This document shows positions 4,254-14,865 of a stretch of DNA of 16,143 nt, piece after piece. Source of the stretch: a virus. Taxonomy: Duplodnaviria; Heunggongvirae; Uroviricota; Caudoviricetes. Every line of letters begins with the position of its first letter. Within the stretch, counting starts at the first letter, position 1. Position numbers and translations under genes: made by a program. The notes under the pieces are model-generated. The model was not told the DNA's origin and searched no databases. It worked only from the letters and a program-made list of their open reading frames with translations. Location of the stretch: the IMG/VR virus record IMGVR_UViG_2609459839_000007, one strand, 5' to 3'.

Positions 4254-4730
4254 ATGATGCCATTTGCTCGTTATTTCTGCATTTTCATAAACGTTGGTTT
4301 GGGAGAAGCGGCAAAACGGGATGTGGGGACAGGGGAAAATCAGATACCGGACATGGCCTCTTTTGCCAGTGGTGATGGATGGATGAAATTACCCAACGGG
4401 AAAATCCTGCAATATGGTCGTGGTGCGGTTACGCCGACATTATCGACGCAAACAATGAGAATTACATTCAGCATCCCTTTCCCCAAAAAAGCGGACTGCG
4501 CCATGCTTACTCATTCTGGTGATGGCGGTGCGCCTTTAGCTGGCGCAGTCAAAGAAGCGATCAGTGAGGTATTCAGCCGTCAGGCCTGGAGGAAAAACCC
4601 AGCCACAAGCCACGCCGCTGCATTCAGGTCTGCCGGAGACATCTGGTCGACAGAGCTTTGCGGCACTTTCGCCAGCCGCACAATGTATTTAGATACCACA
4701 TGTGCCAGAAGTCTGACGGACTCATCCTGA
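4254..4730 (+). pseudogene. Orphan tail-fibre C-terminal variable segment (remnant of an invertible tail-fibre cassette), promoterless
   Basis: ORF reads rightward across the candidate crossover site; contains GDGWMKLPNGKILQYGRG, resembling the conserved GW.KLP.G.I.QWG motif of variable tail-fibre C-termini. No N-terminal tail-fibre body and no downstream assembly gene. Confidence 0.3.
4282..4307. other. Candidate invertase crossover site (gix/hix/pix-like 26-bp imperfect dyad)
   Basis: TTTTCATAAACG TT GGTTTGGGAGAA resembles the recalled hix/gix pattern TTnTCnnAAACC nn GGTTTnnnGAnAA; lies ~55 bp upstream of the invertase start, the usual position of the invertase-proximal site. Confidence 0.3.
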
Positions 4731-4731
4731 T

Positions 4732-5412
4732 TCATCTGGTAGGGATACCGTCACTGGCAAGCTTGTGACGCCCGTACTTACTGGTAATGACGGATTTCAG
4801 TTTGCGCAGTACATACGCACTGGTATGCAGCGTCTCGCTGTCGAGGTAGCTGTTATCCGCATCCGGCATCTGTTCGTTTTCAGCGATACCGTAACCCGCC
4901 AGAGAGGACGGCTGCCCCAGTTCCAGCCCCGGACGCCACAGATAGTTACCCTCGGTGTCTTTCAGCAAACGGATGGCAAACAGGCTGTTGTTGTTCATCA
5001 TGAACTTCGCGCCGGTGCGGTGTGCCTTACGCAGCGTGTAAATCAGTTTGATAATGGCGTCTGCGGTCACCGCGGTCGCTTCGCCGGATACAATATGCTG
5101 AAGTTTGCCGAACGCCCGGACCTTGTCGGTTTCATCAGTGGATTCATACGCCAGGAACCCTTTCGGCTTCTTGGTGCCATCGCCGGTGGTAAAGGCAATT
5201 TCTTCCTGTTCGGCAAATTCGGTTGCCAGCTCGCTGTTGATCCATGCTTCCACGTTGAAAAAGGCATCATCCAGCATTTTCTGGGTAGCCTGCGGGTTGC
5301 CGTAGATTTCCCCCATGAAAGGTTCAATCAGGCCCAGTTTTGAGGTGGCAGTCTGGGAGCGCGCGTCAGTCTCGCCAACCGGCACTACCTGCTGAGGTGC
5401 CATAGGCGACAC
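4732..5412 (-). pseudogene. Internal fragment of an HK97-family major capsid protein gene
   Basis: Motifs EIAFTTGDGTKKPKGFL, AHRTGAKFMMNNNSLFAIRLLKDTEGNYLWRP and GYGIAENEQMPD match HK97-fold capsid conserved blocks. The ~160 N-terminal residues and the normal C-terminal block are missing; the ORF opens with GTG only by track convention. Confidence 0.6.
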
Positions 5413-5551
5413 CCGTTGTTAACTTATCCATGGATTTCATAACCCCACCTCGCAGACAAAGCGGGTGTAAATTGAGGGAATACTACGAAACGTAACAGAC
5501 TCGGAGTCAGTGAATAACTCAGGTATTGGGTTATCAGCTAATATCGAGACT

Positions 5552-5585: not shown

Positions 5586-6012
5586 AAGCTGTGTGACGAA
5601 GTAACCACTCTTAACAGCATAACCAATTTTTTACGTACGTAAACCACTAAATGATATTTGCGAGAATGCTACCGAGTATTGAAAACACCACTACAAATAC
5701 ATAAGCAAATCCCAACAAATAACCAACAAATAATTTCCAGTGTTATTTTTAGCCGGTTTAAATTGAACCTTCAAATTATAGAGCACCTATAAATAACAGC
5801 CGTTAATATAAATTGGCTAATAGATTTATTTTTATTCAGCAAAGAGCCATGAATAGGATTCGATAGAAAAAAGTTCAGATAAAAATAGAGATCTACTTCA
5901 CAAATCAAACGAGAAACCAAAACTTACATCTTGAAATAATCACATTGATTAGATGAATATTTATCGCGCAGTGACATCATTTTTTAATAATAGTTCAAAA
6001 AAAGGGCTCACG

Positions 6013-7110
6013 ATGAAAAAATTAACAGTGGCAATTTCTGCTGTAGCTGCATCAGTACTGATGGCGATGTCTGCTCAGGCAGCTGAAATTTATAATAAAG
6101 ACAGTAACAAGCTGGATCTGTACGGGAAAGTTAATGCTAAGCACTACTTCTCCTCTAATGATGCAGATGATGGTGATACTACTTATGCCCGTCTTGGCTT
6201 CAAAGGTGAAACCCAAATCAACGATCAACTGACTGGTTTCGGTCAGTGGGAATATGAATTCAAAGGCAACCGCGCTGAATCTCAAGGTTCCTCCAAAGAT
6301 AAAACCCGTCTTGCCTTCGCTGGCCTGAAATTCGGTGACTACGGCTCCATCGATTACGGCCGTAACTACGGTGTAGCATACGACATCGGTGCGTGGACTG
6401 ACGTCCTGCCAGAATTCGGTGGTGACACTTGGACTCAAACCGACGTGTTCATGACTCAACGTGCAACTGGTGTTGCAACCTATCGTAACAACGACTTCTT
6501 TGGTCTGGTTGATGGTCTGAACTTTGCTGCTCAGTACCAAGGCAAAAACGATCGTAGCGATTTCGATAACTACACTGAAGGTAACGGTGATGGCTTCGGT
6601 TTCTCTGCTACCTATGAATACGAAGGATTCGGTATCGGTGCAACTTATGCGAAATCTGATCGTACCGACACTCAAGTTAATGCAGGGAAAGTTCTTCCTG
6701 AAGTATTTGCTTCCGGTAAAAATGCAGAAGTTTGGGCCGCAGGTCTGAAATATGACGCTAACAACATTTACCTGGCCACTACCTATTCTGAAACCCAGAA
6801 TATGACTGTATTTGCTGATCACTTCGTTGCTAATAAAGCCCAAAACTTCGAAGCTGTTGCACAATATCAGTTCGATTTCGGTCTGCGTCCGTCCGTTGCT
6901 TACCTGCAATCTAAAGGTAAGGATCTTGGAGTATGGGGCGATCAGGACTTAGTCAAATATGTTGATGTAGGTGCAACCTATTACTTCAACAAAAATATGT
7001 CTACTTTCGTTGATTACAAAATCAACCTGCTTGACAAAAATGACTTCACTAAAGCACTCGGTGTAAGCACTGATGACATCGTTGCTGTAGGTCTGGTTTA
7101 CCAGTTCTAA
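6013..7110 (+). CDS. nmpC: Outer-membrane general porin, NmpC/OmpD-type (OmpC family), intact
   Basis: 365 aa from the ATG at 6013 with signal peptide [30 protein letters not shown], and C-terminal ...GLVYQF beta-barrel terminus. Matches my recollection of E. coli DLP12 NmpC. The track ORF begins 20 codons earlier, but the signal peptide defines the start. Confidence 0.9.
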
Positions 7111-8555: not shown

Positions 8556-8718
8556 GACTCCTCCTTGCTGCCAGTCGCAACCATTTTTTATCAACCAAGC
8601 TGGCGGTATATCCGAGCAGTGTTGGTATTTCGGATGGCTTCAGCTCAGGTTTACGCTTACGACGATTTGGTACTCTGTAGATGTATCCGTTCATGACACG
8701 AATAAGCGGTGTAGCCAT
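8548..8718 (-). CDS. ninE: NinE-family protein
   Basis: 56 aa ([56 protein letters not shown]); basic KRKP/WLR pattern as in lambda NinE. Start overlaps the ybcN stop. Confidence 0.75.
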   Translation of the reverse strand: MATPLIRVMNGYIYRVPNRRKRKPELKPSEIPTLLGYTASLVDKKWLRLAARRSHG

Positions 8719-9173
8719 TACGCCTCCTGCTTGTCGCGCAGCAGCTGAAACTCGCAGCTCTGTGGAATAGTCAGGTGGCAACCAATATTCACCGCCCAGG
8801 CTTCAACCTTACACAGGAAGATATACATCTCTCCGGTATCAAGATCGGAGGTATGGCGTAACGACTGGATAGTGGTGATCTCACCGGTTACGACATCAAC
8901 CAGGTCTTTGGTTTCATAACCGAGATATGTGTGTTTGAGAGCATCTTTTACCCAAGCTGGAGTGGCGAACGTTTTACCCCTGCTGATGAGGTATTCACTG
9001 ATTTCGCTGTACCACATGTGGCTGAGTGCATTCTGGGAAAGACTGCGTTTCTCACGCCACGGTTTAAGCACCATGCGAAAGCATTTGCCTTCCTCCAGAT
9101 AAGGCTGGATCTGCTGGCCGATAGCGGTGAAGTTACCACGATGCAATTTGATGCCGTCTTGTGGGAGGTTCAC
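8718..9173 (-). CDS. ybcN: YbcN-family prophage protein (DLP12 YbcN-like; reported as a DNA base-flipping protein)
   Basis: 151 aa, GTG start at 9173 preceded by GGAGGTGA; sequence [55 protein letters not shown]... matches recalled DLP12 YbcN. Confidence 0.75.
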
Positions 9174-9206
9174 GCTTCACCTCCGCAGAGGTCAAACGCT
9201 GGATGC

Positions 9207-9291
9207 AAAAAATCGCAGGTGCATCTCTGCATCTGTGAAGGGAGAAGAGAGTTTGGATTGTATGTGCGCATAAACGTCCCCGTTTAGCGCA
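9207..9291. repeat. Copy A of an ~85-bp direct repeat with an embedded 11-bp-stem hairpin
   Basis: Aligns with 11141-11225 at 80/85 identical positions in direct orientation; contains TGCGCATAAACG-TCCC-CGTTTAGCGCA. Lies immediately 5' (minus-strand sense) of ybcN. Confidence 0.85.
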
Positions 9292-9367
9292 GAAGTCACC
9301 GGAGTTGTTCAAGCTCCAATGGCATGATTATGGCTGGTTGATTATTGGAAATCAAATGTGCTGAAAA

Positions 9368-9877
9368 TTAGTCTGCCAAGTCTTCCTCAGTCGCAACTGG
9401 GTAATTCCAAATATCAAAAAAAGCTATAGCCTCCTGCCATTTGCTCCATAAGTTATCAAGTACTTGTGTAGGTTCCGTACTTTTAAAAACAGAATCAGCC
9501 GCATCACCGTTATGAACTTCCTCGTACAGTTCCATTATTAGCAGATTAACAAAGTACTGTTTCAACATTAATGCCTGATTACCTTCTTTCTGCTGGCTAT
9601 CCTGCTTGATGAGCTCCATCGCCCGTACTAGGCACCTGATGATATCCGCTGCATCATTAACGCTCCATTCAGATCCGCGCTTATCTTTAGCTGATGAATT
9701 GGCTCTCTCAGCGCAAGCCTTTAAAGACTCATAAAGGTAAACTCTATTTTGTAGCTGCAGCGCTTTTTTTGACGTGCACCAACTTGCAAGCGCCGACCCC
9801 GCTGCGGCTAATGTGCCAAACGCAGAAATGCCTGCTGCTATTGCACTTAAGTCGGCACTGTCAAAGTTCCACATCAT
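9368..9877 (-). CDS. Hypothetical single-pass membrane protein (moron in the nin region)
   Basis: 169 aa; ATG at 9877 preceded by AAGGTG. N-terminal hydrophobic stretch LSAIAAGISAFGTLAAAGSALASW, then an acidic helical domain. AT-rich, with its own AT-rich upstream region. Confidence 0.6.
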   Translation of the reverse strand: MMWNFDSADLSAIAAGISAFGTLAAAGSALASWCTSKKALQLQNRVYLYESLKACAERANSSAKDKRGSEWSVNDAADIIRCLVRAMELIKQDSQQKEGNQALMLKQYFVNLLIMELYEEVHNGDAADSVFKSTEPTQVLDNLWSKWQEAIAFFDIWNYPVATEEDLAD

Positions 9878-10052
9878 CGTTACACCTTATATAAACACCC
9901 CTCAGTAATATCCAATAAGGTATGTGAACAATCAATATAATTTATATCCGTATCGGCACATAGCGATTTTAATGCTACTGATAATGGTATCTTTTAGATT
10001 ATATCGTCCAGTTCCAGTACCCGTATTTTATGAAATGGACTCGCACATTACC

Positions 10053-10093
10053 AAAAAAAATGCCAGCACTTCCGTCATCGCAGAATGCTGGCA
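10053..10093 (-). terminator. Rho-independent terminator after the Bro-N gene
   Basis: 8-bp stem TGCCAGCA / TGCTGGCA (10061-10093) followed on the minus strand by a T8 run (10053-10060). Confidence 0.5.
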
Positions 10094-10112
10094 GTATTTC
10101 TAACTAGTGACT

Positions 10113-10721
10113 TTATTGCAACAGATTCTGACGGAAATATGGTAACACACGACTCCACTTATCATCCTGCCACGGTTGGAATTTTACATGCGCCGTTTCT
10201 CTGGCAAGGATTTCTCGCGCCCTGTTGAGTATCCGAGGATATTCTTGTTCGATTGAAGTGAATCTACCTGCTTCGCGATGCTCTGCGACCTGAAGAAGGG
10301 GCGTAACGTTCTGGCAGGCGGTTAACATCGTATCACTTGCTCGCCATAACCAGGCGAGTGTGCAAAGTTCGTTATCAGTGAATTGTTTTGTGATTGGGGA
10401 TTGTTGAACTTCTCGATCGAGAATATCCAGAACCCAGCGGCGGAATTCTTTGGCCACAGGAGTACGAGCAAACATGGCGATCAAATGGGCTCCGCGAAGG
10501 CTAAATACTCGAGACTCCTGCATTCCACGAGGGGTGGTCACTTTGACCACCCTTGTCATCATATCTGTGAATTCATCTGAGTGCCGAGAGTAAATGCGCT
10601 GAACTGCTTTATCGTCCGCATATTCCAGTGCTAAACCAACTTCAGTGGCAGTAAGCCAAATTCTGTTATTGTGGCAAATCGGGGTAAACGTCGTTTTGTG
10701 GAATGCTAATTGAGTAGTCAT
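10113..10721 (-). CDS. Bro-N domain protein (putative phage antirepressor-like regulator)
   Basis: 202 aa; ATG at 10721 preceded by GAGGTGA. N-terminal region (NNRIWLTATEVGLALEY...RVFSLRGAHLIAMFARTPVAKEFRRWVLD) fits the Bro-N pattern. Confidence 0.65.
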   Translation of the reverse strand: MTTQLAFHKTTFTPICHNNRIWLTATEVGLALEYADDKAVQRIYSRHSDEFTDMMTRVVKVTTPRGMQESRVFSLRGAHLIAMFARTPVAKEFRRWVLDILDREVQQSPITKQFTDNELCTLAWLWRASDTMLTACQNVTPLLQVAEHREAGRFTSIEQEYPRILNRAREILARETAHVKFQPWQDDKWSRVLPYFRQNLLQ

Positions 10722-10876
10722 AGTATCACCTCATCAGGTTAACCATCACCACCAACGACGCCAATCGACTGGTGGTGAACTGTGTAAGGTTGGCGTAACC
10801 GGCTACTCAAACCCGGCGCTTCCGAAGAAGCCCTCACACAGCCCACCATAATTTGGGCATAGCCGTGCTTAGCGCA

Positions 10877-10898
10877 CAAAAAAACCGCTTAACGCGGT
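10877..10898 (-). terminator. Putative rho-independent terminator (minus strand)
   Basis: ACCGC-TTAAC-GCGGT hairpin (10884-10898) followed on the minus strand by a T7 run (10877-10883); lies ~85 nt downstream of the small ORF at 10985-11074. Confidence 0.4.
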
Positions 10899-10984
10899 AT
10901 GCGTTGAGTAGTATCCCGGGACGCCAATCCCGTGTGCCGATTTTGCGGCAACGCACAGAATATAGCGCCGGATAAATCATGTCG

Positions 10985-11074
10985 TCAACCCCAGTAAATG
11001 GACACCATGATGATCACAGCCATAGCTGCTACAACAGTTACAACTACCTCAGGCCAAAACATAACGATTTCCAT
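10985..11074 (-). CDS. Small hydrophobic peptide (29 aa), candidate membrane peptide
   Basis: Below the ORF-track cutoff; hand-translated as MEIVMFWPEVVVTVVAAMAVIIMVSIYWG. ATG at 11074 preceded by AAAGGTGA; downstream terminator at 10877-10898; copy B of the 85-bp repeat lies just upstream. Confidence 0.3.
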   Translation of the reverse strand: MEIVMFWPEVVVTVVAAMAVIIMVSIYWG

Positions 11075-11140
11075 ATCACCTTTAGCCGCCAGACGAATAG
11101 AGACTCCCAATTCTGGCTGTCGAAGTAAAACACCGAATGT

Positions 11141-11225
11141 AAAAAATCGTAGGTGCATTTCTGCATCTGTGAATGGAGATGAGAGTTTGGATTGTGTGTG
11201 CGCATAAACGTCCCCGTTTAGCGCA
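11141..11225. repeat. Copy B of the ~85-bp direct repeat with embedded hairpin
   Basis: 80/85 identical to 9207-9291; same hairpin TGCGCATAAACG-TCCC-CGTTTAGCGCA. Confidence 0.85.
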
Positions 11226-11363
11226 ACCCCACCACCGGGTGTTCAGGCCGACAGTAACTATATTATTCCCTACTGATTTTTGAAAATCAAAGGTCTTTAT
11301 ACGTCACACGAGAGCAAATATTTCCGAAGAAGAAACCTTTCGCCTTGAAAGGATAAAGAGTTC

Positions 11364-11410
11364 ATTTCATAAATTGAAATATTCAATAAGAATATTTCAA
11401 AAAATGAAAT
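11364..11410. promoter_or_regulatory. Cluster of three overlapping dyad symmetries (candidate operator) upstream of the 11534 gene
   Basis: ATTTCA-N5-TGAAAT (11364-11380), GAAATATTC-N5-GAATATTTC (11376-11398), ATTTCA-N5-TGAAAT (11394-11410), in an AT-rich region 125-170 bp upstream of the start codon. Confidence 0.35.
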
Positions 11411-11533: not shown

Positions 11534-13036
11534 ATGACTCAAACTCCTCTATTACTTGCAATCATATTTTTATTGGTTGTTCTTGTTCTTTATATAGCTG
11601 CAATCAAACGCATCAAAAAATTACAATTAGAATTAAGTGATAGCAATCAAAAAAATGAAGAATACAAATCTCGCTTTGCAGATTATTTTAATGTAGAAGA
11701 AGAATGTAAGAAGCTTATTGAGAAAACAGAGCAAGAATGCTCCATAATAAAAGAAGAATCCCTAAAAGTAAAAGAAAATGCCAATAATGAACTAACAAAC
11801 ACCATTGAAAAAATGGATGGTATCAATAAACAAATCCAAGAGCTAAGAAGAACTTATAAAGAGAAGAAAGAAATATATGATAAACTAGTAAGGCAAATTT
11901 CTATTTATTCAGAAGATGTTGAGCTAGCCGAACTAGGATTTTACGAACCTCATTTTAATTTTGAAGATTCAGAGCAATTTAAAAACAAAATAAAATCCAT
12001 CAGGGATGAACAGAAATTAATGCTGCGGGATAAAACCCACTCTGGCGCAGTATATTGTACAACCCAATGGACTGTTGAAGGCTCTCGAGCAGAGGGTAAA
12101 AAAATGACAGACAGAAATATCAGGCTAACTACTAGAGCATTTAATAATGAATGTGATGCTGCAATTAGCAATTGCACGTGGAAAAACATCACTAAAATGG
12201 AAGAACGCATCACAAAGGCATTTGAGGCCATAAATAAACTAAACGAGCAAAATCACATATATATAAACACTAAATACCTCAATAAAAAACTTGAGGAATT
12301 GTGGCTTACCCATGAATATCGTGAGCAAAAACAGAAAGAAAAAGAAGAACAGGCAGAAATAAGGGCACAAATGAGAGAGGAGGAGCGTGCACAACGAGAA
12401 ATAGAAAAGGCCATGCAAGACGCAGAGGCAGAAGAGCGCCGTTATAAAAAAGCAATTGAAGCTGCAAGAAAGGAAATGGAAAAAGTTACTGGTGACATGA
12501 AGCAGCGCCTCGAAAATCGCATTGCCGAACTAGAACAGAGTTTGTCGCAGGCTGAATCAAAGCATCAAAGAGCATTATCCATGGCACAACAAACCAAACA
12601 AGGTCATGTTTATATTATTTCGAACATAGGTTCTTTTGGGGAGAATGTTTATAAAATAGGCATGACACGACGTCTTGATCCGCAAGACCGTGTAAATGAG
12701 CTCGGTGATGCATCTGTTCCTTTTATTTTTGATGTACATGCCATGATTTATTCGGAGGACGCTCCATCATTAGAAAAAAAACTACATGATGTCTTCGATA
12801 AAAAGAGAGTCAATCTTGTAAATCGTAGAAAAGAGTTTTTCTATATTACTCTGGATGAGATCAAAGAAGCTGTTAAAAAACACTCTGATTCAGAAATTGA
12901 ATTTATTGAGACAGCAGTCGCAAAAGACTTTAATGAGTCATTGGCTATTCGTAATCATGAAAATAAAAAAAGTGACAACAGCAACTCATCAATTATACCT
13001 GAGCGAAAAACCCCAGAGTTTGCAGATGCAATTTAA
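11534..13036 (+). CDS. Membrane-anchored coiled-coil protein with C-terminal GIY-YIG-type nuclease domain (T5orf172-like; architecture resembles DUF4041-T5orf172 proteins)
   Basis: 500 aa; ATG at 11534 preceded by AAGGAA. N-terminal TM helix (LLLAIIFLLVVLVLYIAAI), two E/K/R-rich coiled-coil stretches, and C-terminal GHVYIISNIGSFGENVYKIGMTRR...PFIFDVHAMIY...KEFFYITLDEI (GxVY...YKIG, Arg, Glu). Very AT-rich. Confidence 0.8.
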   Translation: MTQTPLLLAIIFLLVVLVLYIAAIKRIKKLQLELSDSNQKNEEYKSRFADYFNVEEECKKLIEKTEQECSIIKEESLKVKENANNELTNTIEKMDGINKQIQELRRTYKEKKEIYDKLVRQISIYSEDVELAELGFYEPHFNFEDSEQFKNKIKSIRDEQKLMLRDKTHSGAVYCTTQWTVEGSRAEGKKMTDRNIRLTTRAFNNECDAAISNCTWKNITKMEERITKAFEAINKLNEQNHIYINTKYLNKKLEELWLTHEYREQKQKEKEEQAEIRAQMREEERAQREIEKAMQDAEAEERRYKKAIEAARKEMEKVTGDMKQRLENRIAELEQSLSQAESKHQRALSMAQQTKQGHVYIISNIGSFGENVYKIGMTRRLDPQDRVNELGDASVPFIFDVHAMIYSEDAPSLEKKLHDVFDKKRVNLVNRRKEFFYITLDEIKEAVKKHSDSEIEFIETAVAKDFNESLAIRNHENKKSDNSNSSIIPERKTPEFADAI

Positions 13037-13402: not shown

Positions 13403-14188
13403 ATGAGTACAGCACTCGCAACGCTGGCTGGGAAGCTGGCTGAACGTGTCGGCATGGATTCTGTCGACCCACAGGAACTGATCACCACTCTTCGCCAGAC
13501 GGCATTTAAAGGTGATGCCAGCGATGCGCAGTTCATCGCATTGTTGATCGTCGCCAACCAGTACGGCCTTAATCCGTGGACGAAAGAAATTTACGCCTTC
13601 CCTGATAAGCAGAACGGCATCGTTCCGGTGGTGGGCGTTGATGGCTGGTCCCGCATCATCAATGAAAACCAGCAGTTTGATGGCATGGACTTTGAGCAGG
13701 ACAATGAATCCTGTACATGCCGGATTTACCGCAAAGACCGTAATCATCCGATCTGCGTTACCGAGTGGATGGATGAATGCCGCCGCGAACCATTCAAAAC
13801 CCGCGAAGGCAGAGAAATCACCGGACCGTGGCAGTCGCATCCCAAACGGATGTTACGGCATAAAGCCATGATTCAGTGTGCCCGTCTGGCCTTTGGATTT
13901 GCGGGTATCTATGACAAGGATGAAGCCGAGCGCATTGTCGAAAATACCGCATACACTGCAGAACGTCAGCCGGAACGCGACATCACTCCGGTTAACGATG
14001 AAACCATGCAGGAGATTAACACTCTGCTGATCGCCCTGGATAAAACATGGGATGACGACTTATTGCCGCTCTGTTCCCAGATATTTCGCCGCGACATTCG
14101 CGCATCGTCAGAACTGACACAGGCCGAAGCAGTGAAAGCTCTTGGATTCCTGAAACAGAAAGCCACTGAGCAGAAGGTGGCAGCATGA
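13403..14188 (+). CDS. bet: Lambda Red single-strand annealing protein Bet
   Basis: 261 aa, [43 protein letters not shown]..., essentially as recalled for lambda Bet; stop overlaps the exo start. Confidence 0.95.
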
Positions 14189-14865
14189 CACCAGACATTA
14201 TCCTGCAGCGTACCGGGATCGACGTGAGAGCTGTCGAGCAGGGGGATGATGCGTGGCACAAATTACGGCTCGGCGTCATCACAGCTTCAGAAGTTCACAA
14301 CGTGATAGCAAAACCCCGCTCCGGAAAGAACTGGCCTGACATGAAAATGTCCTACTTCCACACCCTGCTTGCTGAGGTTTGCACCGGTGTGGCTCCGGAA
14401 GTTAACGCTAAGGCGCTGGCCTGGGGAAAACAGTACGAGAACGACGCCAGAGCCCTGTTTGAGTTTACTTCCGGCGTTAATGTTACTGAATCCCCGATCA
14501 TCTATCGCGACGAAAGTATGCGCACCGCCTGCTCTCCCGATGGTTTATGCAGTGACGGCAACGGCCTTGAGCTGAAATGCCCGTTTACCTCCCGGGATTT
14601 CATGAAATTCCGGCTCGGTGGTTTCGAGGCCATAAAATCGGCTTACATGGCCCAGGTGCAGTACAGCATGTGGGTGACGCGAAAAGATGCCTGGTACTTT
14701 GCCAACTATGACCCGCGCATGAAGCGTGAAGGCCTGCATTATGTCGTGGTTGAGCGGGATGAAAAGTACATGGCGAATTTTGACGAGATGGTGCCGGAGT
14801 TCATCGAAAAAATGGACGAGGCACTGGCTGAAATTGGTTTTGTATTTGGGGAGCAATGGCGATGA
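14185..14865 (+). CDS. exo: Lambda Red 5'-3' exonuclease Exo
   Basis: 226 aa, [40 protein letters not shown]..., as recalled for lambda exonuclease. Confidence 0.95.

Follow-up and report, generated by a model that had tools for sequence, protein, structure and literature searches.

An 85-bp direct repeat in the window (the whole stretch of DNA analysed here, 16,143 nucleotides) is the best-conserved core of a control cassette of about 190 bp, which comprises a promoter, a folded RNA leader, a tiny leader ORF and a weak putative terminator. We propose, with a probability of roughly 60%, that the cassette, present in duplicate, would act as a translation-gated attenuator and translational-coupling device heading the ninB-rusA-Q operon, and that an antirepressor module would have been inserted via cassette homology. 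Direct support comes from the repeat itself, a promoter motif, three covarying stem-loops (SL0, SL1 and SL3), the position of the leader start, the overlap of the leader stop with the next start codon, and a hybrid empty site.

The original prediction had described a direct repeat of about 85 bp with 94% identity and 5 differences. Alignment of 9207-9291 with 11141-11225 gave exactly this result (80/85 identical), and a repeat search of the whole window extended the similarity to 104 nt at 89% (9188-9291 versus 11122-11225), so the repeat is neither shorter nor weaker than first read. Every further direct repeat in the window is at most 34 nt long and at most 80% identical, therefore the 104-nt repeat is far beyond chance. 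Fainter homology between the copies reaches further 5' in the minus sense, past the 85-bp core. The covariance model of the whole element matched at 9196-9323 (160 bits, copy A) and 11130-11257 (135 bits, copy B) and nowhere else in the window. The sense strand of the unit is the minus strand, and the promoter motif lies just upstream of each copy. Copy A and copy B had been placed right before ybcN and a 29-codon hydrophobic ORF. The order holds; copy A ends about 35 nt ahead of the ybcN/ninB start (GTG at 9173) and copy B lies about 70 nt ahead of the small ORF (11074-10985). Among the suggested roles, that of a duplicated promoter/leader element has the best functional support, but the size was underestimated (about 190 bp, not 85) and the leader ORF and the hairpin hiding the Shine-Dalgarno (SD) sequence were unseen. 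Also absent from that account were the overlap with the annotated ylcH/orf33, the minus functional strand, and the isrK-like, c4-a1b1 and C4 RNA genes between the copies. The parts of copy A and its first gene are listed below.

9338-9355, minus strand: inverted repeat TTGAT-N8-ATCAA, overlapping the -35 and the spacer (pattern match, 0 mismatches)
9327..9355, minus strand: predicted promoter, -35 TTGATT at 9355-9350, 17-nt spacer, -10 CATAAT at 9332-9327 (promoter scan)
9297..9321, minus strand: SL0, the 5'-terminal stem-loop of the predicted transcript, loop CUUGAACAA, present in the MFE fold
9265..9291, minus strand: SL1, GCGCUAAACG-GGGA-CGUUUA(U)GCGC (folds)
9170..9271, minus strand: leader ORF, 33 codons plus stop, equal to ylcH of K-12 DLP12 and orf33 of phage 82 (ORF list and annotation)
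9239..9264, minus strand: linker, G-free, CA/CU-rich, predicted single-stranded, leader codons 3-12
9207..9238, minus strand: SL2 and U-tract, CAGAUGCA-GAGA-UGCACCUG, then CGA, then UUUUUU at 9212-9207 (terminator scan and fold)
9172..9199, minus strand: SL3, a hairpin burying the ninB SD (GGAGG) and GUG start, -16.8 kcal/mol, z -2.56
8718..9173, minus strand: ninB/ybcN, PHROG 72; copy A heads the operon ninB-ninE-ybcO-rusA-ylcG-Q, in which this gene comes first

The match of ninB/ybcN to Pfam NinB (E 8.5e-05) scores 22.8 bits, slightly under the curated cut-off of 23.8, and the RefSeq annotation of an identical locus agrees with the call. The same promoter and palindrome layout stands ahead of about 100 distinct variants, among which the sequence further upstream is unrelated, and the same hexamers are marked as a putative promoter in the record of phage 82 (X92588). 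The inverted repeat TTGAT-N8-ATCAA is a candidate operator that probably binds some regulator; a pattern search of the window returned no occurrence above chance elsewhere.

SL0, SL1 and SL3 are supported by strong compensatory covariation. Across 80 distinct sequences, 96.1% of the cells were paired, versus 17-43% in slid controls. Compensatory changes were found at 17 of the 27 pairs, and the number of compensatory cells reached 269, versus 88.5 ± 5.9 in shuffles (0/500). In this set, 8/10 pairs of SL0 showed compensatory changes, and its loop is CCUGAACAA in most relatives. SL1 corresponds to the strong shared hairpin with a TCCC loop that had been noticed earlier; it was found as 10 bp with one bulged base, with the loop reading UCCC on the plus strand and GGGA on the minus (sense) strand. 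GGGA and the G before it resemble an SD sequence, and the 3' arm contains the leader AUG (9271-9269). Seven different stem sequences carry the one invariant GGGA loop in the variant list, 9/10 pairs covary among the 80 sequences, and the folding energy is -11 to -15 kcal/mol in every type. SL3 sequesters the ninB SD in all tail types, with three or four different arm sequences and energies of -6 to -18 kcal/mol, and the ninB ribosome-binding site is predicted to be occluded by SL3 unless the upstream ORF is translated. The linker between SL1 and SL2 is the most variable part of the element and is hypervariable between element types. A cmscan search (E up to 1; isrK, C4, c4-a1b1 and the other 4224 models) gave no Rfam match at 9188-9355 or 11122-11290.

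SL2 has an 8-bp stem, a GNRA loop and a conserved internal A.C mismatch. Its energy is -7.3 kcal/mol in copy A and -4.4 kcal/mol in copy B, and the consensus scan sees only a 5-pair version, in copy A only. The U-tract reads UUUUUU in both copies of the window, 2-3 nt past the stem. It has at least 5/6 U in 113 of 126 distinct variants and is interrupted (UUUUCU) in most of them. Because the hairpin is weak, a gap of 2-3 nt precedes the U-tract and the tract is mostly interrupted, termination at SL2 may be inefficient. When the downstream sequence was included, the RNAalifold/MFE solution became a rival long hairpin, which pairs GAUGCAGAAAUGC with the U-tract region. The nucleotide sequence of SL2 is near-absolutely invariant across genera, for which the attenuator reading has no account. 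A diverged Citrobacter copy (L200:5306-5427) keeps the SL2 architecture including the A.C mismatch with a different sequence, and its U-tract is CGAUUUUCUUUUU.

Phage lambda carries a strong hairpin and T-run between ren and ninB, which we take to be tR2. It is quite unlikely that the unit is the tR2 equivalent, that is, a terminator with accessory hairpins stopping pR transcription before the nin genes as long as no antiterminator acts, with a non-functional or minor promoter motif, in which case the duplication would give each module its own stop signal. The shared map position immediately before ninB, the order of hairpin and T-run, and the conservation of SL2 and its U-tract fit this reading. 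However, a terminator could do without the promoter motif, SL0, SL1, the leader ORF and SL3, yet each of these is conserved or covaries, and SL2 is far weaker than the lambda hairpin (-7.3 versus -15.4 kcal/mol). Many variants already carry a strong terminator (GGCCUCUUCGGAGGCC then a U-run) just 5' of the promoter, and the homologous Gifsy-1 promoter has a mapped transcription start site (PMC4825925). The lambda site itself has no sequence similarity to the cassette, no covariance-model match, no promoter motif and no leader ORF. The suggestion of a conserved nut-like or terminator landmark was only partly right: the position is that of the lambda hairpin, but the element has an unrelated sequence and is far more elaborate.

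The leader ORF (29-34 codons) lies between the promoter and the first structural gene. Its start position is conserved in 84 of 88 distinct elements. Every type has the start codon, which is GUG in type 3 and AUG otherwise, at the same site within the 3' arm of SL1, and the distance from this start to SL2 is always 36 or 39 nt. SL2 and the U-tract make up leader codons ~13-22 (..SQMQKCTCDFL..), which places the terminator-like site within reach of leader translation. In copy A the leader TGA overlaps the GTG start of ninB (GTGA, 9173-9170). In 80/88 distinct elements, including four tail sequences and the diverged Citrobacter copy, the leader stop is part of an RTGA that overlaps a downstream ORF 60 aa or more in length. 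The K-12 element is about 96% identical to copy A; its ylcH (572368-572469) aligns with copy A and has the same kind of 4-nt overlap with ybcN. An open leader frame alone is weak evidence, because the +1 frame is likewise open in 70/87 variants. The leader peptides are hypervariable and show no runs of regulatory codons. On the 5' side of SL2, no conserved helix turned up that could compete with it, and the sole alternative pairing lies 3' of the U-tract.

That ylcH/orf33 is a functional protein of 31-33 aa, with the conservation coming from coding and the repeat being a gene duplication, is very unlikely. It is annotated as CDS in K-12, phage 82, HK225 and RefSeq genomes, nearly all variants keep the ORF in frame together with its start codon, and the segment SQMQKCTCDFLH does not vary. 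On the other hand, variable sites are spread over the three codon positions as 13/12/16 with no third-position excess, and nonsynonymous variants (34) outnumber synonymous ones (15). The N-terminal third is unrelated between types. The SQMQKCTCDFLH segment is constant in nucleotides, even at synonymous sites, which places the constraint at the RNA or DNA level. The five positions at which copies A and B differ all change the amino acid, and the copy B C-terminus is replaced and extended to 53 aa. The peptide has no PHROG match. In K-12 the 'ylcH' RNA was detectable and about 4-fold up microaerobically, while the protein was not detected in the one proteome listing it (PMC8910356). These substitution patterns indicate that the leader peptide sequence is not under purifying selection.

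Of 5426 complete E. coli genomes, 4210 contain the unit, as do phages of Escherichia, Enterobacter and Klebsiella. In most lambdoid prophages of E. coli it stands ahead of the genes from ninB to Q. The distance to the start of the NinB-family gene is fixed at 39-42 nt across several different NinB sequence types, and upstream neighbours differ freely between loci. The unit is always co-oriented with the next gene and was free-standing in none of about 130 loci. Two other identities were considered and rejected. An IS200/IS605 end was suggested by an overlapping 'tnpA' at one locus, which is a truncated tnpA ORF reading from the IS into the unit; another locus has the same unit and flanks without tnpA, and the unit also occurs in its usual context next to ybcM. 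Sites of the nut and put type lie just downstream of pL/pR and have boxA-boxB or the put two-stem fold, with a boxA-like consensus of CGCUCUU(U)A. The unit has its own promoter and is located in the nin region, and the phages that carry it differ in their early regions. Nothing resembling the boxA CGCUCUU(U)A can be seen in its sequence.

A further idea is that the unit encodes a self-standing, trans-acting sRNA of about 113 nt, which would act on host or phage mRNAs or as a sponge for a host sRNA, the place before ninB being incidental and the ORF spurious. We consider this unlikely. A promoter, a 5' stem and a terminator-like 3' end are present, the combination of a variable 5'/middle part and an invariant 3' hairpin resembles prophage anti-sRNAs (PMC4104026), ylcH RNA occurs in K-12 without detected protein (PMC8910356), and the SL2 invariance could reflect a binding partner. 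Against it, the unit is never independent of its neighbours, lying in the same orientation 39-42 nt ahead of ninB or about 72 nt ahead of the small ORF. A conserved start codon and RTGA overlap are needless for an sRNA, and SL3 forms one continuous design with the downstream SD. A conserved single-stranded seed is absent, the would-be seed (the linker) being the least conserved part, and there is neither an Rfam family nor any correspondence to AgvB/AsxR, Pas, HnrS or svsR. The small structured RNA offered by the original prediction, if free-standing, is less likely than the leader and insertion-mark roles, because of the fixed distance of 39-42 nt to a co-oriented gene and the hypervariable single-stranded linker. 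The unit might also serve as an sRNA in addition to being a leader, as IsrK does.

Copy B heads the second group of genes, whose features are as follows.

11336..11352, minus strand: terminator-like hairpin, CCUUUCAAGGCGAAAGG then UUUCUUCUUC, directly 5' of the copy B promoter, the place where many relatives have the strong terminator (terminator scan)
11273-11290, minus strand: inverted repeat of copy B (pattern match, one mismatch)
11262..11290, minus strand: predicted copy B promoter, -35 TTGATT at 11290-11285, 17 nt, -10 AATAAT at 11267-11262 (promoter scan)
11130..11257, minus strand: structured leader of copy B, covariance-model match of 135 bits, whole RNA z -1.01
11044..11205, minus strand: leader ORF of copy B, extended to 53 codons, with its stop 27 nt beyond the AUG of the hydrophobic ORF (ORF list)
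10985..11074, minus strand: 29-codon hydrophobic ORF (MEIVMFWPEVVVTVVAAMAVIIMVSIYWG), first ORF 3' of copy B, PHROG 4612, E 1.7e-16
10768..10988, minus strand: antirepressor control RNAs with their own predicted promoter TTGACG-18-TATATT at 10988-10959 (Rfam and promoter scan)
10965-10913, minus strand: c4-a1b1 targets, Rfam 39.6 bits, under the gathering score of 46.7
10950-10878, minus strand: isrK-like RNA with terminator, Rfam 58.7 bits, gathering 50
10853-10768, minus strand: C4 antisense RNA, Rfam 74.8 bits, gathering 45
10113..10721, minus strand: antirepressor gene, Bro-N and P22AR_C (Pfam), PHROG anti-repressor Ant families
9368..9877, minus strand: 169-aa cargo ORF in the variable slot between ant and copy A, PHROG 1779, function unassigned there

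SL1 of copy B (11199-11225) is identical to that of copy A. SL0 is weak with several G.U pairs, and SL2 (11147-11172) is weakened by a C.A pair and followed by the U-tract at 11141-11146. The hairpin at 11336..11352 would insulate the copy B cassette against upstream transcription. Other ant-proximal copies have a leader ORF of 40-53 codons whose stop falls -12 to +27 nt around the small-ORF AUG; ant-proximal copies lack an exact coupling of the leader stop with the ORF that follows. The hydrophobic ORF has conserved homologues at two other loci. The Bro-N gene expected between the copies is confirmed by Pfam and is an antirepressor gene. The 169-aa cargo ORF had no Pfam and no PADLOC match, and the slot is filled by different cargo at other loci.

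Eight other loci show the same order of unit, small ORF, isrK, C4, ant, variable cargo, unit and ninB. The comparison with module-free relatives that had been called for identified two loci (L070 and L038) with the same PD-Lambda-1 flank, a single hybrid unit (B-5'/A-3') and ninB, and with the module absent. Their crossover lies inside the 29-bp identical SL1 segment, and because these module-less relatives carry one hybrid unit, the unit is the crossover site. Copy B itself is composite, with a PD-Lambda-1-linked 5' half and an ant-type 3' half. Judged from these junctions, the two copies mark where the antirepressor module recombined in. The proposed recombination scar is supported as a mark of module insertion, but the cassette is a pre-existing functional element used as homology and not a by-product of the insertion. 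That the repeat is a mere scar or 'linker', neutral homology remaining at module borders after mosaic exchange among lambdoid phages, is highly improbable. The hybrid units and the composite copy B do speak of repeated crossovers inside the unit, and upstream neighbours vary freely; neutral homology, however, would not give compensatory changes in three helices, an invariant tetraloop, and a preserved promoter motif and stop/start overlap. The covariation already disfavours a scar without function.

On the preferred reading, the cassette would work as a translation-gated attenuator. We infer that the promoter would be active in E. coli, that SL2 would terminate, and that the leader would be translated and serve as the gate. 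RNA would start from a sigma-70-type promoter (TTGATT-17-CATAAT) overlapped by a palindrome that probably binds a regulator, and the nascent 5' end would fold into SL0. SL1 would come next, showing the SD-like GGGGA in its loop and locking the leader AUG in its stem. The leader ORF would then cross the G-free linker, SL2 and its U-tract as a weak intrinsic terminator, and SL3, which would hide the SD and start of the first real gene, before stopping at the RTGA that overlaps the start codon of that gene. With the leader untranslated, SL2 would form and most transcripts would end as an RNA of about 113 nt, and the read-through mRNA would be translationally silent because of SL3. With the leader translated, the ribosome would block SL2, open SL3 and pass to ninB by termination-reinitiation. 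As a result, the ninB-rusA-Q operon would be expressed from the cassette promoter, independent of pR. The isrK/C4-controlled antirepressor module, with the membrane ORF ahead and the cargo behind, would have entered by homologous recombination on the cassette, and this use of the cassette as homology would explain why the window has two copies. After the insertion, copy B would head the antirepressor module and copy A would still head ninB.

Leader-ORF attenuators of the E. coli pyrBI type have their terminator inside the leader ORF. The cassette is similar in having a promoter-proximal short ORF, a terminator-like hairpin and U-tract inside this ORF, where a translating ribosome would block terminator formation, and a leader peptide whose sequence is unimportant. 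It differs in having no regulatory codon runs or conserved antiterminator helix, in a leader start locked in the covarying SL1, in the coupling of the leader to the first gene through the RTGA overlap and SD-hiding hairpin, and in being phage-borne and modular. The IsrK-orf45-anrP system of Salmonella Gifsy-1 is also related in logic. There, a short RNA ends at an intrinsic terminator, the read-through mRNA is translationally inactive, and expression of the downstream gene depends, by coupling, on translation of a small upstream ORF, with control of the Q antiterminator operon as the outcome (PMC4825925). The prophage setting, the proposed short and read-through RNAs with coupling, and the Q-operon outcome are alike, and an isrK-like module lies between the two copies of the window. 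In contrast, the repeat unit has no Rfam similarity to isrK or C4 and heads ninB, not an antirepressor, in most phages.

In Gifsy-1, the transcription start site of the antQ operon lies 1,600 nt upstream of antQ, and the operon is induced by the antirepressor AnrP (PMC4825925). Upstream of STM2620/SL2582 we found TTGACT-17-CATAAT, the identical CCUGAACAA loop and an SL1-like hairpin, with a predicted start site about 1606 nt upstream of antQ, which agrees with the published position. This 5' UTR and the cassette both lead the nin-to-Q operon, some 1.6 kb ahead of Q; both have the CATAAT, a 5' stem capped by the CCUGAACAA loop, and a further hairpin whose loop holds the SD and whose 3' arm holds the AUG. 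In Gifsy-1, unlike the cassette, the hairpin AUG starts the first full-length gene, and a short leader ORF, SL2/U-tract and the TTGAT-N8-ATCAA palindrome are all absent. The Gifsy-1 match to the covariance model scored 7 bits (E 0.67), which is not significant; the Gifsy-1 promoter is judged homologous to the cassette promoter from motif identity and the intermediate Citrobacter copy.

The same element in the same place is known as ylcH (b4588) of K-12 DLP12 and orf33 of phage 82 (X92588), recorded only as a hypothetical small protein (with a putative promoter in phage 82). The RNA structures, the putative terminator inside the ORF, the SD sequestration and the second copy before an antirepressor module are absent from these records. 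A more far-reaching possibility, which we regard as improbable, is that both cassettes form one coupled RNA switch, in which the short terminated leader RNA from either would act in trans by pairing via SL2 and the linker with both read-through transcripts. In Gifsy-1, short IsrK acts in trans on its own read-through transcript (PMC4825925); trans-activation by the short form is shown for IsrK and is speculative for the cassette. By opening SL1 or SL3, such pairing would permit translation of the leader. The coupled switch would explain the absolute invariance of SL2 and the presence of the cassette on the antirepressor module. If true, it would co-activate the antirepressor module and the ninB-to-Q operon through a shared, copy-number-sensitive RNA signal, independent of the immunity repressor.

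The repeat scan of the window returned a single outstanding direct repeat, 9188-9291 versus 11122-11225 (104 nt, 89% identity), and the remaining repeat families were all at most 34 nt long and at most 80% identical. The original prediction of an ~85-bp direct repeat was confirmed: its core copies, 9207-9291 (copy A) and 11141-11225 (copy B), differ at exactly 5 of 85 positions. The hairpin described for both copies was borne out as 10 bp with one bulged base, its loop reading UCCC on the plus strand and GGGA on the minus strand. Each copy also lies 5' of a minus-strand gene, as had been proposed. About 35 nt separate copy A from the GTG (9173) of ybcN, which is ninB, and copy B lies about 70 nt ahead of a 29-codon hydrophobic ORF. 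Because all neighbour genes are on the minus strand, the unit was read in minus sense, as a promoter, hairpins SL0, SL1 and SL2 with a U-tract, a leader ORF, and hairpin SL3 over the ninB Shine-Dalgarno (SD) sequence. By these components we class the cassette as a putative leader-ORF attenuator with translational coupling, which would double as recombination homology.

A sequence search had been suggested as a check for a conserved landmark, and it found the unit to be common in lambdoid prophages, with a NinB-family gene immediately 3' of it in every case examined. The 104-nt unit was matched in 4210 of 5426 complete E. coli genomes (~78%) at 6237 places, and also in phages 82, 4A7, HK639 and HK225 and in Enterobacter and Klebsiella phages. 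The K-12 counterpart is ylcH (b4588) of DLP12, with 33 codons and a 4-nt overlap with ybcN, annotated as hypothetical protein YlcH and nothing more. The predicted K-12 sites fall at 572,307-572,312 for the -10 box, ~572,319 for the transcription start and ~572,425-572,432 for the U-tract. Phage 82 has the unit as orf33, and its depositors also marked a putative promoter there. Phage lambda differs in having an unrelated strong hairpin with a T-run at this position, presumably tR2, and gave zero matches to the covariance model of the unit. About 130 further loci were pulled from IMG/VR using the SL2 core as pattern. Retrieval anchored on the SL0 loop gave mostly chance matches; among the matches listed, the covariance model confirmed at least ~10 Enterobacterales loci, and the taxonomic range given here is a minimum. 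A complete enterobacterial-type cassette (105.7 bits) was also found on a 1115-bp contig assigned to 'Kocuria sabuli' (locus L192, NZ_JAVHZE010000050.1), most likely as contamination of this actinobacterial assembly.

When the 120 nt upstream of 15 copies, four of them ant-proximal, were aligned, a conserved TTGATT-17-CATAAT promoter was observed, with a palindrome TTGAT-N8-ATCAA over the -35 and spacer, and a stem with loop CCUGAACAA comes next. Among the IMG/VR loci, nearly all of 108 distinct variants carry this promoter motif, even though their flanks farther 5' are unrelated, and in many a strong terminator directly precedes the promoter. The corresponding sites in the window are as follows.

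Predicted promoters and upstream terminator-like hairpin of the two copies
9355-9327, minus strand, copy A promoter (promoter scan)
11290-11262, minus strand, copy B promoter (promoter scan)
11352-11336, minus strand, terminator-like hairpin before the copy B promoter (terminator scan)

The palindrome was considered as a regulator site. The FNR consensus has an N4 spacing and the Fur consensus has 19 positions; neither is supported, as the palindrome is spaced by N8 and has 8 of 19 Fur consensus matches, counted by hand. Elsewhere in the window the palindrome did not recur above chance.

A covariance model built on nine close copies, for which three helices were entered by hand, found 105 elements in 100 sources and exactly two in the window (9196-9323 at 160 bits and 11130-11257 at 135 bits). 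Across 80 distinct sequences, in an alignment that leans toward structure because it was fitted to the model, standard pairs filled 96.1% of cells versus 17-43% with partners slid 1-3 columns. Compensatory cells numbered 269 versus 88.5 ± 5.9 in shuffles (0 of 500 reached it), and 8 of 10 pairs in SL0 and 9 of 10 in SL1 covaried. Compensatory changes occurred at 17 of 27 pairs versus 11.8 ± 1.1 in shuffles, a number reached by 0 of 500. SL1 has at least seven different stem sequences (9-11 bp, -11 to -15 kcal/mol), all capped by GGGA, and the same SL1 pattern was seen in an alignment-free list of raw variants.

SL2, CAGAUGCA-GAAA-UGCACCUG with a conserved A.C mismatch, does not vary among the IMG/VR loci retrieved by it, which is circular because the retrieval pattern required SL2. 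The same SL2 also recurs unchanged in 8 of 9 model-confirmed elements obtained with the other anchor (among the matches listed) and in BLAST-retrieved phages. The one diverged copy, from Citrobacter (L200:5306-5427, 41 bits), has an SL2 wholly different in sequence, with equal stem length and mismatch position, a 4-nt loop and then CGAUUUUCUUUUU. In 113 of 126 variants, at least 5 of 6 U-tract positions are U. SL2 itself has little stability (-7.3 kcal/mol; -4.4 in copy B), and a rival long hairpin using the U-tract competes with it in equilibrium folds. The minimum-free-energy structure of copy A is SL0, SL1 and SL2, with z -2.67; for copy B the structure is weaker, with z -1.01. The SL2 region CACAGATGCAGAAATGCACCTGCGA (window 9213-9238 and 11147-11172) is identical at every nucleotide across Escherichia, Enterobacter, Klebsiella, Lelliottia, Huaxiibacter, Trabulsiella and Citrobacter, and next to it SL1, the linker and the NinB proteins vary greatly.

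That the leader ORF is spurious was suggested by the five A/B differences, all nonsynonymous, and by a copy B frame of 53 codons. This reading was overturned by the conserved start position and the RTGA overlap. In each of the seven SL1 types the start codon, AUG (GUG in type 3), occupies one fixed place in the SL1 3' arm, and its distance to SL2 is 36 or 39 nt without exception. In 80 of 88 distinct elements the final TGA overlaps the RTG start codon of an ORF downstream that is at least 60 aa long, and the overlap is kept across four different tail sequences and the diverged Citrobacter copy. The open frame itself is weak evidence because the +1 frame, as a control, is also open in 70 of 87 variants. 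In ant-proximal copies the coupling is imprecise, with leaders of 40-53 codons whose stop lies -12 to +27 nt around the next AUG. Variable sites fall 13/12/16 by codon position, and 15 synonymous versus 34 nonsynonymous changes were counted. The N-terminal third is unrelated between types, and SQMQKCTCDFLH, the segment that stays constant, does so at the nucleotide level. These comparisons indicate that the peptide sequence is not under selection, and the pattern is the signature of a leader ORF in which translation would matter rather than its product.

The SL1 loop is an SD-like GGGGA, the sequence that the phage 82 depositors took as the orf33 ribosome-binding site. The ninB SD, and often its start codon too, is paired in SL3 in every tail type, with upstream arms that differ by type (CCUC...GAGG, GCGUUACCUC...GAGGUGGCGU and GCGGUUUCC...GGAGGCCGU; -6 to -18 kcal/mol). 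The copy A SL3 (9199-9172) has -16.8 kcal/mol and z -2.56, and the leader ORF passes straight through SL3. Pairing in cis of the CU-rich linker with the ninB SD was also considered; the matches are short and non-conserved, and SL3 better explains the SD occlusion.

These components suggest a translation-gated attenuator with translational coupling, in which SL1 would lock the leader start, a weak predicted terminator lies inside the leader ORF, SL3 would hide the SD, and the RTGA overlap joins the two frames. If the leader is untranslated, transcription would terminate at SL2 to give an ~113-nt RNA, and read-through transcripts would be silent. If the leader is translated, read-through and NinB synthesis would follow, and the ninB-rusA-Q operon would be expressed from the cassette promoter. 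The G-free linker could be an additional candidate Rho entry site on untranslated leaders. The closest bacterial logic is that of a pyrBI-type leader. In a prophage, the closest described logic is IsrK-orf45-anrP (PMC4825925).

In Gifsy-1, TTGACT-17-CATAAT lies directly 5' of STM2620, with which the operon ending in antQ begins. A stem there carries the loop CCUGAACAA, identical to that of the cassette, and a hairpin has GGAG in the loop and AUG in the 3' arm. The predicted Gifsy-1 start (~36632) is ~1606 nt upstream of antQ, and the published mapping places the antQ TSS 1,600 nt upstream, in an operon (SL2582-SL2579) whose transcription is raised by the antirepressor AnrP and by prophage induction (PMC4825925). 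In the window, the copy A promoter is ~1620 nt upstream of Q. The covariance model scored 7 bits on Gifsy-1, below significance; a link to the cassette is suggested by the shared motifs and by the intermediate Citrobacter copy, whose SL1, GCGCCAC..GGAG..CCAUGGCGC, is nearly that of Gifsy-1. In K-12, the 'ylcH' RNA is up ~4-fold microaerobically, and no protein was detected (PMC8910356).

The genes and RNAs around the two copies are listed below.

Features around copies A and B in the window
5953-7110, plus strand, porin gene, 3' of Q on the opposite strand (Pfam Porin_1, E 5.6e-157)
7698-7300, minus strand, Q antiterminator gene, downstream of copy A
9368-9877, minus strand, 169-aa cargo ORF with hydrophobic N-terminus (PHROG 1779, function unknown)
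10721-10113, minus strand, antirepressor gene, Bro-N and P22AR_C (domain match)
10853-10768, minus strand, C4 antisense RNA (Rfam 74.8 bits, gathering score 45)
10950-10878, minus strand, isrK-like RNA with terminator (Rfam 58.7 bits, gathering score 50)
10965-10913, minus strand, c4-a1b1 targets (Rfam 39.6 bits, under the gathering score of 46.7)
10988-10959, minus strand, strong promoter-like site (promoter scan)
10985-11074, minus strand, 29-codon hydrophobic ORF (PHROG 4612; homologues in compared loci L009 and L134)
11534-13036, plus strand, PD-Lambda-1 defence gene, 500 aa, DUF4041/T5orf172 (PADLOC E 3.7e-198)
13403-14188, plus strand, RecT, beyond PD-Lambda-1
14185-14865, plus strand, YqaJ exonuclease, beyond PD-Lambda-1

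The region between the copies is an antirepressor control module of the P1 immI / Gifsy-1 isrK-orf45-anrP type (PMC4825925). Its RNA control region (10768-10988, minus strand), directly 5' of the antirepressor gene, had been missed in the original prediction. The hydrophobic ORF could be a small membrane or toxin-like peptide. Gene callers lengthen it to 57 aa from an AUG (11158) inside copy B SL2, and this AUG is absent (AUA) in locus L010 and in IdasGreatGrand. On the other side, copy A is followed 3' by ninB, ybcO, rusA and the Q gene, with ninE and ylcG annotated in the identical RefSeq locus; the porin gene sits where DLP12 has nmpC.

Between RecT/YqaJ and the nin region, the window lacks genes O, P, ren, cro and cI. 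This sets it apart from phage PhiR26_1, which is otherwise identical to it over the module. The immunity and replication region of the window prophage therefore seems to have been lost, and the cassette promoters appear to be the only obvious drivers of ninB to Q.

The arrangement unit, small hydrophobic ORF, isrK/a1b1, C4, ant, variable cargo, unit, ninB recurs at eight other loci, among them IdasGreatGrand, E. coli 95-3322, an O157-like strain and several IMG/VR contigs. The cargo between ant and the second unit differs by locus (slot at 4182-5295 in L009 and 4321-5117 in L010); it is the 169-aa ORF in the window and, in others, a HEPN-domain protein with a partner, or a DNA polymerase III theta homologue with other ORFs. 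PhiR5_1 and ET358 carry ant modules without an upstream unit copy. A single-copy empty site, to be sought in relatives lacking the module, was found in two loci, L070 and L038. Both have the PD-Lambda-1 gene, the AT-rich spacer and a copy-B-type promoter and SL0 (with the unusual GGUGGGGU) as in the window, and their 3' part is a copy-A-type linker, tail and ninB. The switch from B to A lies inside a 29-bp identical SL1 segment, TGCGCTAAACGGGGACGTTTATGCGCACA. Copy B is itself a hybrid of a PD-Lambda-1-linked 5' half and a tail typical of ant-proximal copies. These hybrid units therefore indicate that the cassette is a repeated crossover site for module gain and loss, in agreement with the classical picture of lambdoid mosaicism, exchange via short shared sequences at module boundaries. 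From this arrangement, every module inserted by such a crossover would arrive behind a complete promoter-leader. The earlier reading of the repeat as a recombination scar thus stands as far as a crossover site for the module is concerned, and fell short in that the repeat would also be a leader-ORF attenuator with coupling.

The PD-Lambda-1 gene adjoins copy B upstream on the opposite strand and is tied to a copy-B-type promoter and SL0 in L038 and L070 too. The spacer between this gene and the copy B promoter holds an AT-rich 21-nt inverted repeat, ATTTCATAAATTGAAATATTC / GAATATTTCAAAAAATGAAAT (11364-11410), which is conserved together with the terminator-like hairpin (11336-11352) and the PD-Lambda-1 flank in both loci. 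The 3' arm of copy B SL0 (11229-11240, minus sense CCCGGTGGTGGGG) contains GGTGGTGG, which differs at one position from the Chi octamer GCTGGTGG and is possibly relevant to recombination at the junction.

Two further two-copy arrangements lack the isrK/ant module. Locus L107 has units at 6850-6978 and 10953-11081, 4.1 kb apart, the second before a 271-aa ORF. Citrobacter L200 has a degenerate unit (4272-4393) ahead of a decayed ninB and, 1 kb on, the strongly diverged unit at 5306-5427 ahead of a 66-aa ORF and rusA. Other modules, too, can thus have the cassette at their head.

Several known identities were rejected. An IS200/IS605 origin was raised by ~80%-identity matches that fell on annotated tnpA; in these, a truncated tnpA ORF runs on into a unit at its normal place. 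In E. coli 7/2 (L006 1562-2131, NZ_CP023820) the last ~50 residues of a RefSeq 'IS200/IS605 family transposase' are read-through into a ylcH-type unit, an annotation artefact through which BLAST feature tables suggest a transposon link for the unit. AgvB/AsxR are located 3' of PR', not at the place of the unit; Pas sRNAs lie near lysis and structural genes, and the Pas paper is without ninB, ybcN or ylcH. svsR is at the cI 3' end, and HnrS is a 66-nt RNA of late genes in EHEC/EPEC only. The unit had no match in Rfam. Within the mainly open-access literature searched, the element was not described in the supplements of a K-12 small-RNA sequencing paper, or in papers on ylcH, ybcN and ninB with sRNA or promoter. 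The ORF and a putative promoter are already known (phage 82; K-12 annotation). That literature gave no description of a structured leader, of a terminator within the ORF, of SD sequestration, of covariation across the family or of a module-junction role. The element is suited to a new Rfam cis-regulatory family.

The cassette stands at the entry to an operon that contains rusA and ends in the late-gene antiterminator Q. If the proposed mechanism is true, it would be a gate for prophage Q and recombination functions without the early promoter pR, and this gate would also serve cryptic prophages such as that of the window. It would then have consequences for killing by prophages, which has been shown for Gifsy-1 AntQ, for the silence of rusA in K-12, and for antirepressor switches feeding late gene expression. 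Since a functional cassette is also portable homology, modules would be gained or lost always with a ready-made expression signal. This would give a concrete mechanism of mosaic evolution, in which the modules are an antirepressor switch and variable cargo beside the PD-Lambda-1 defence gene.
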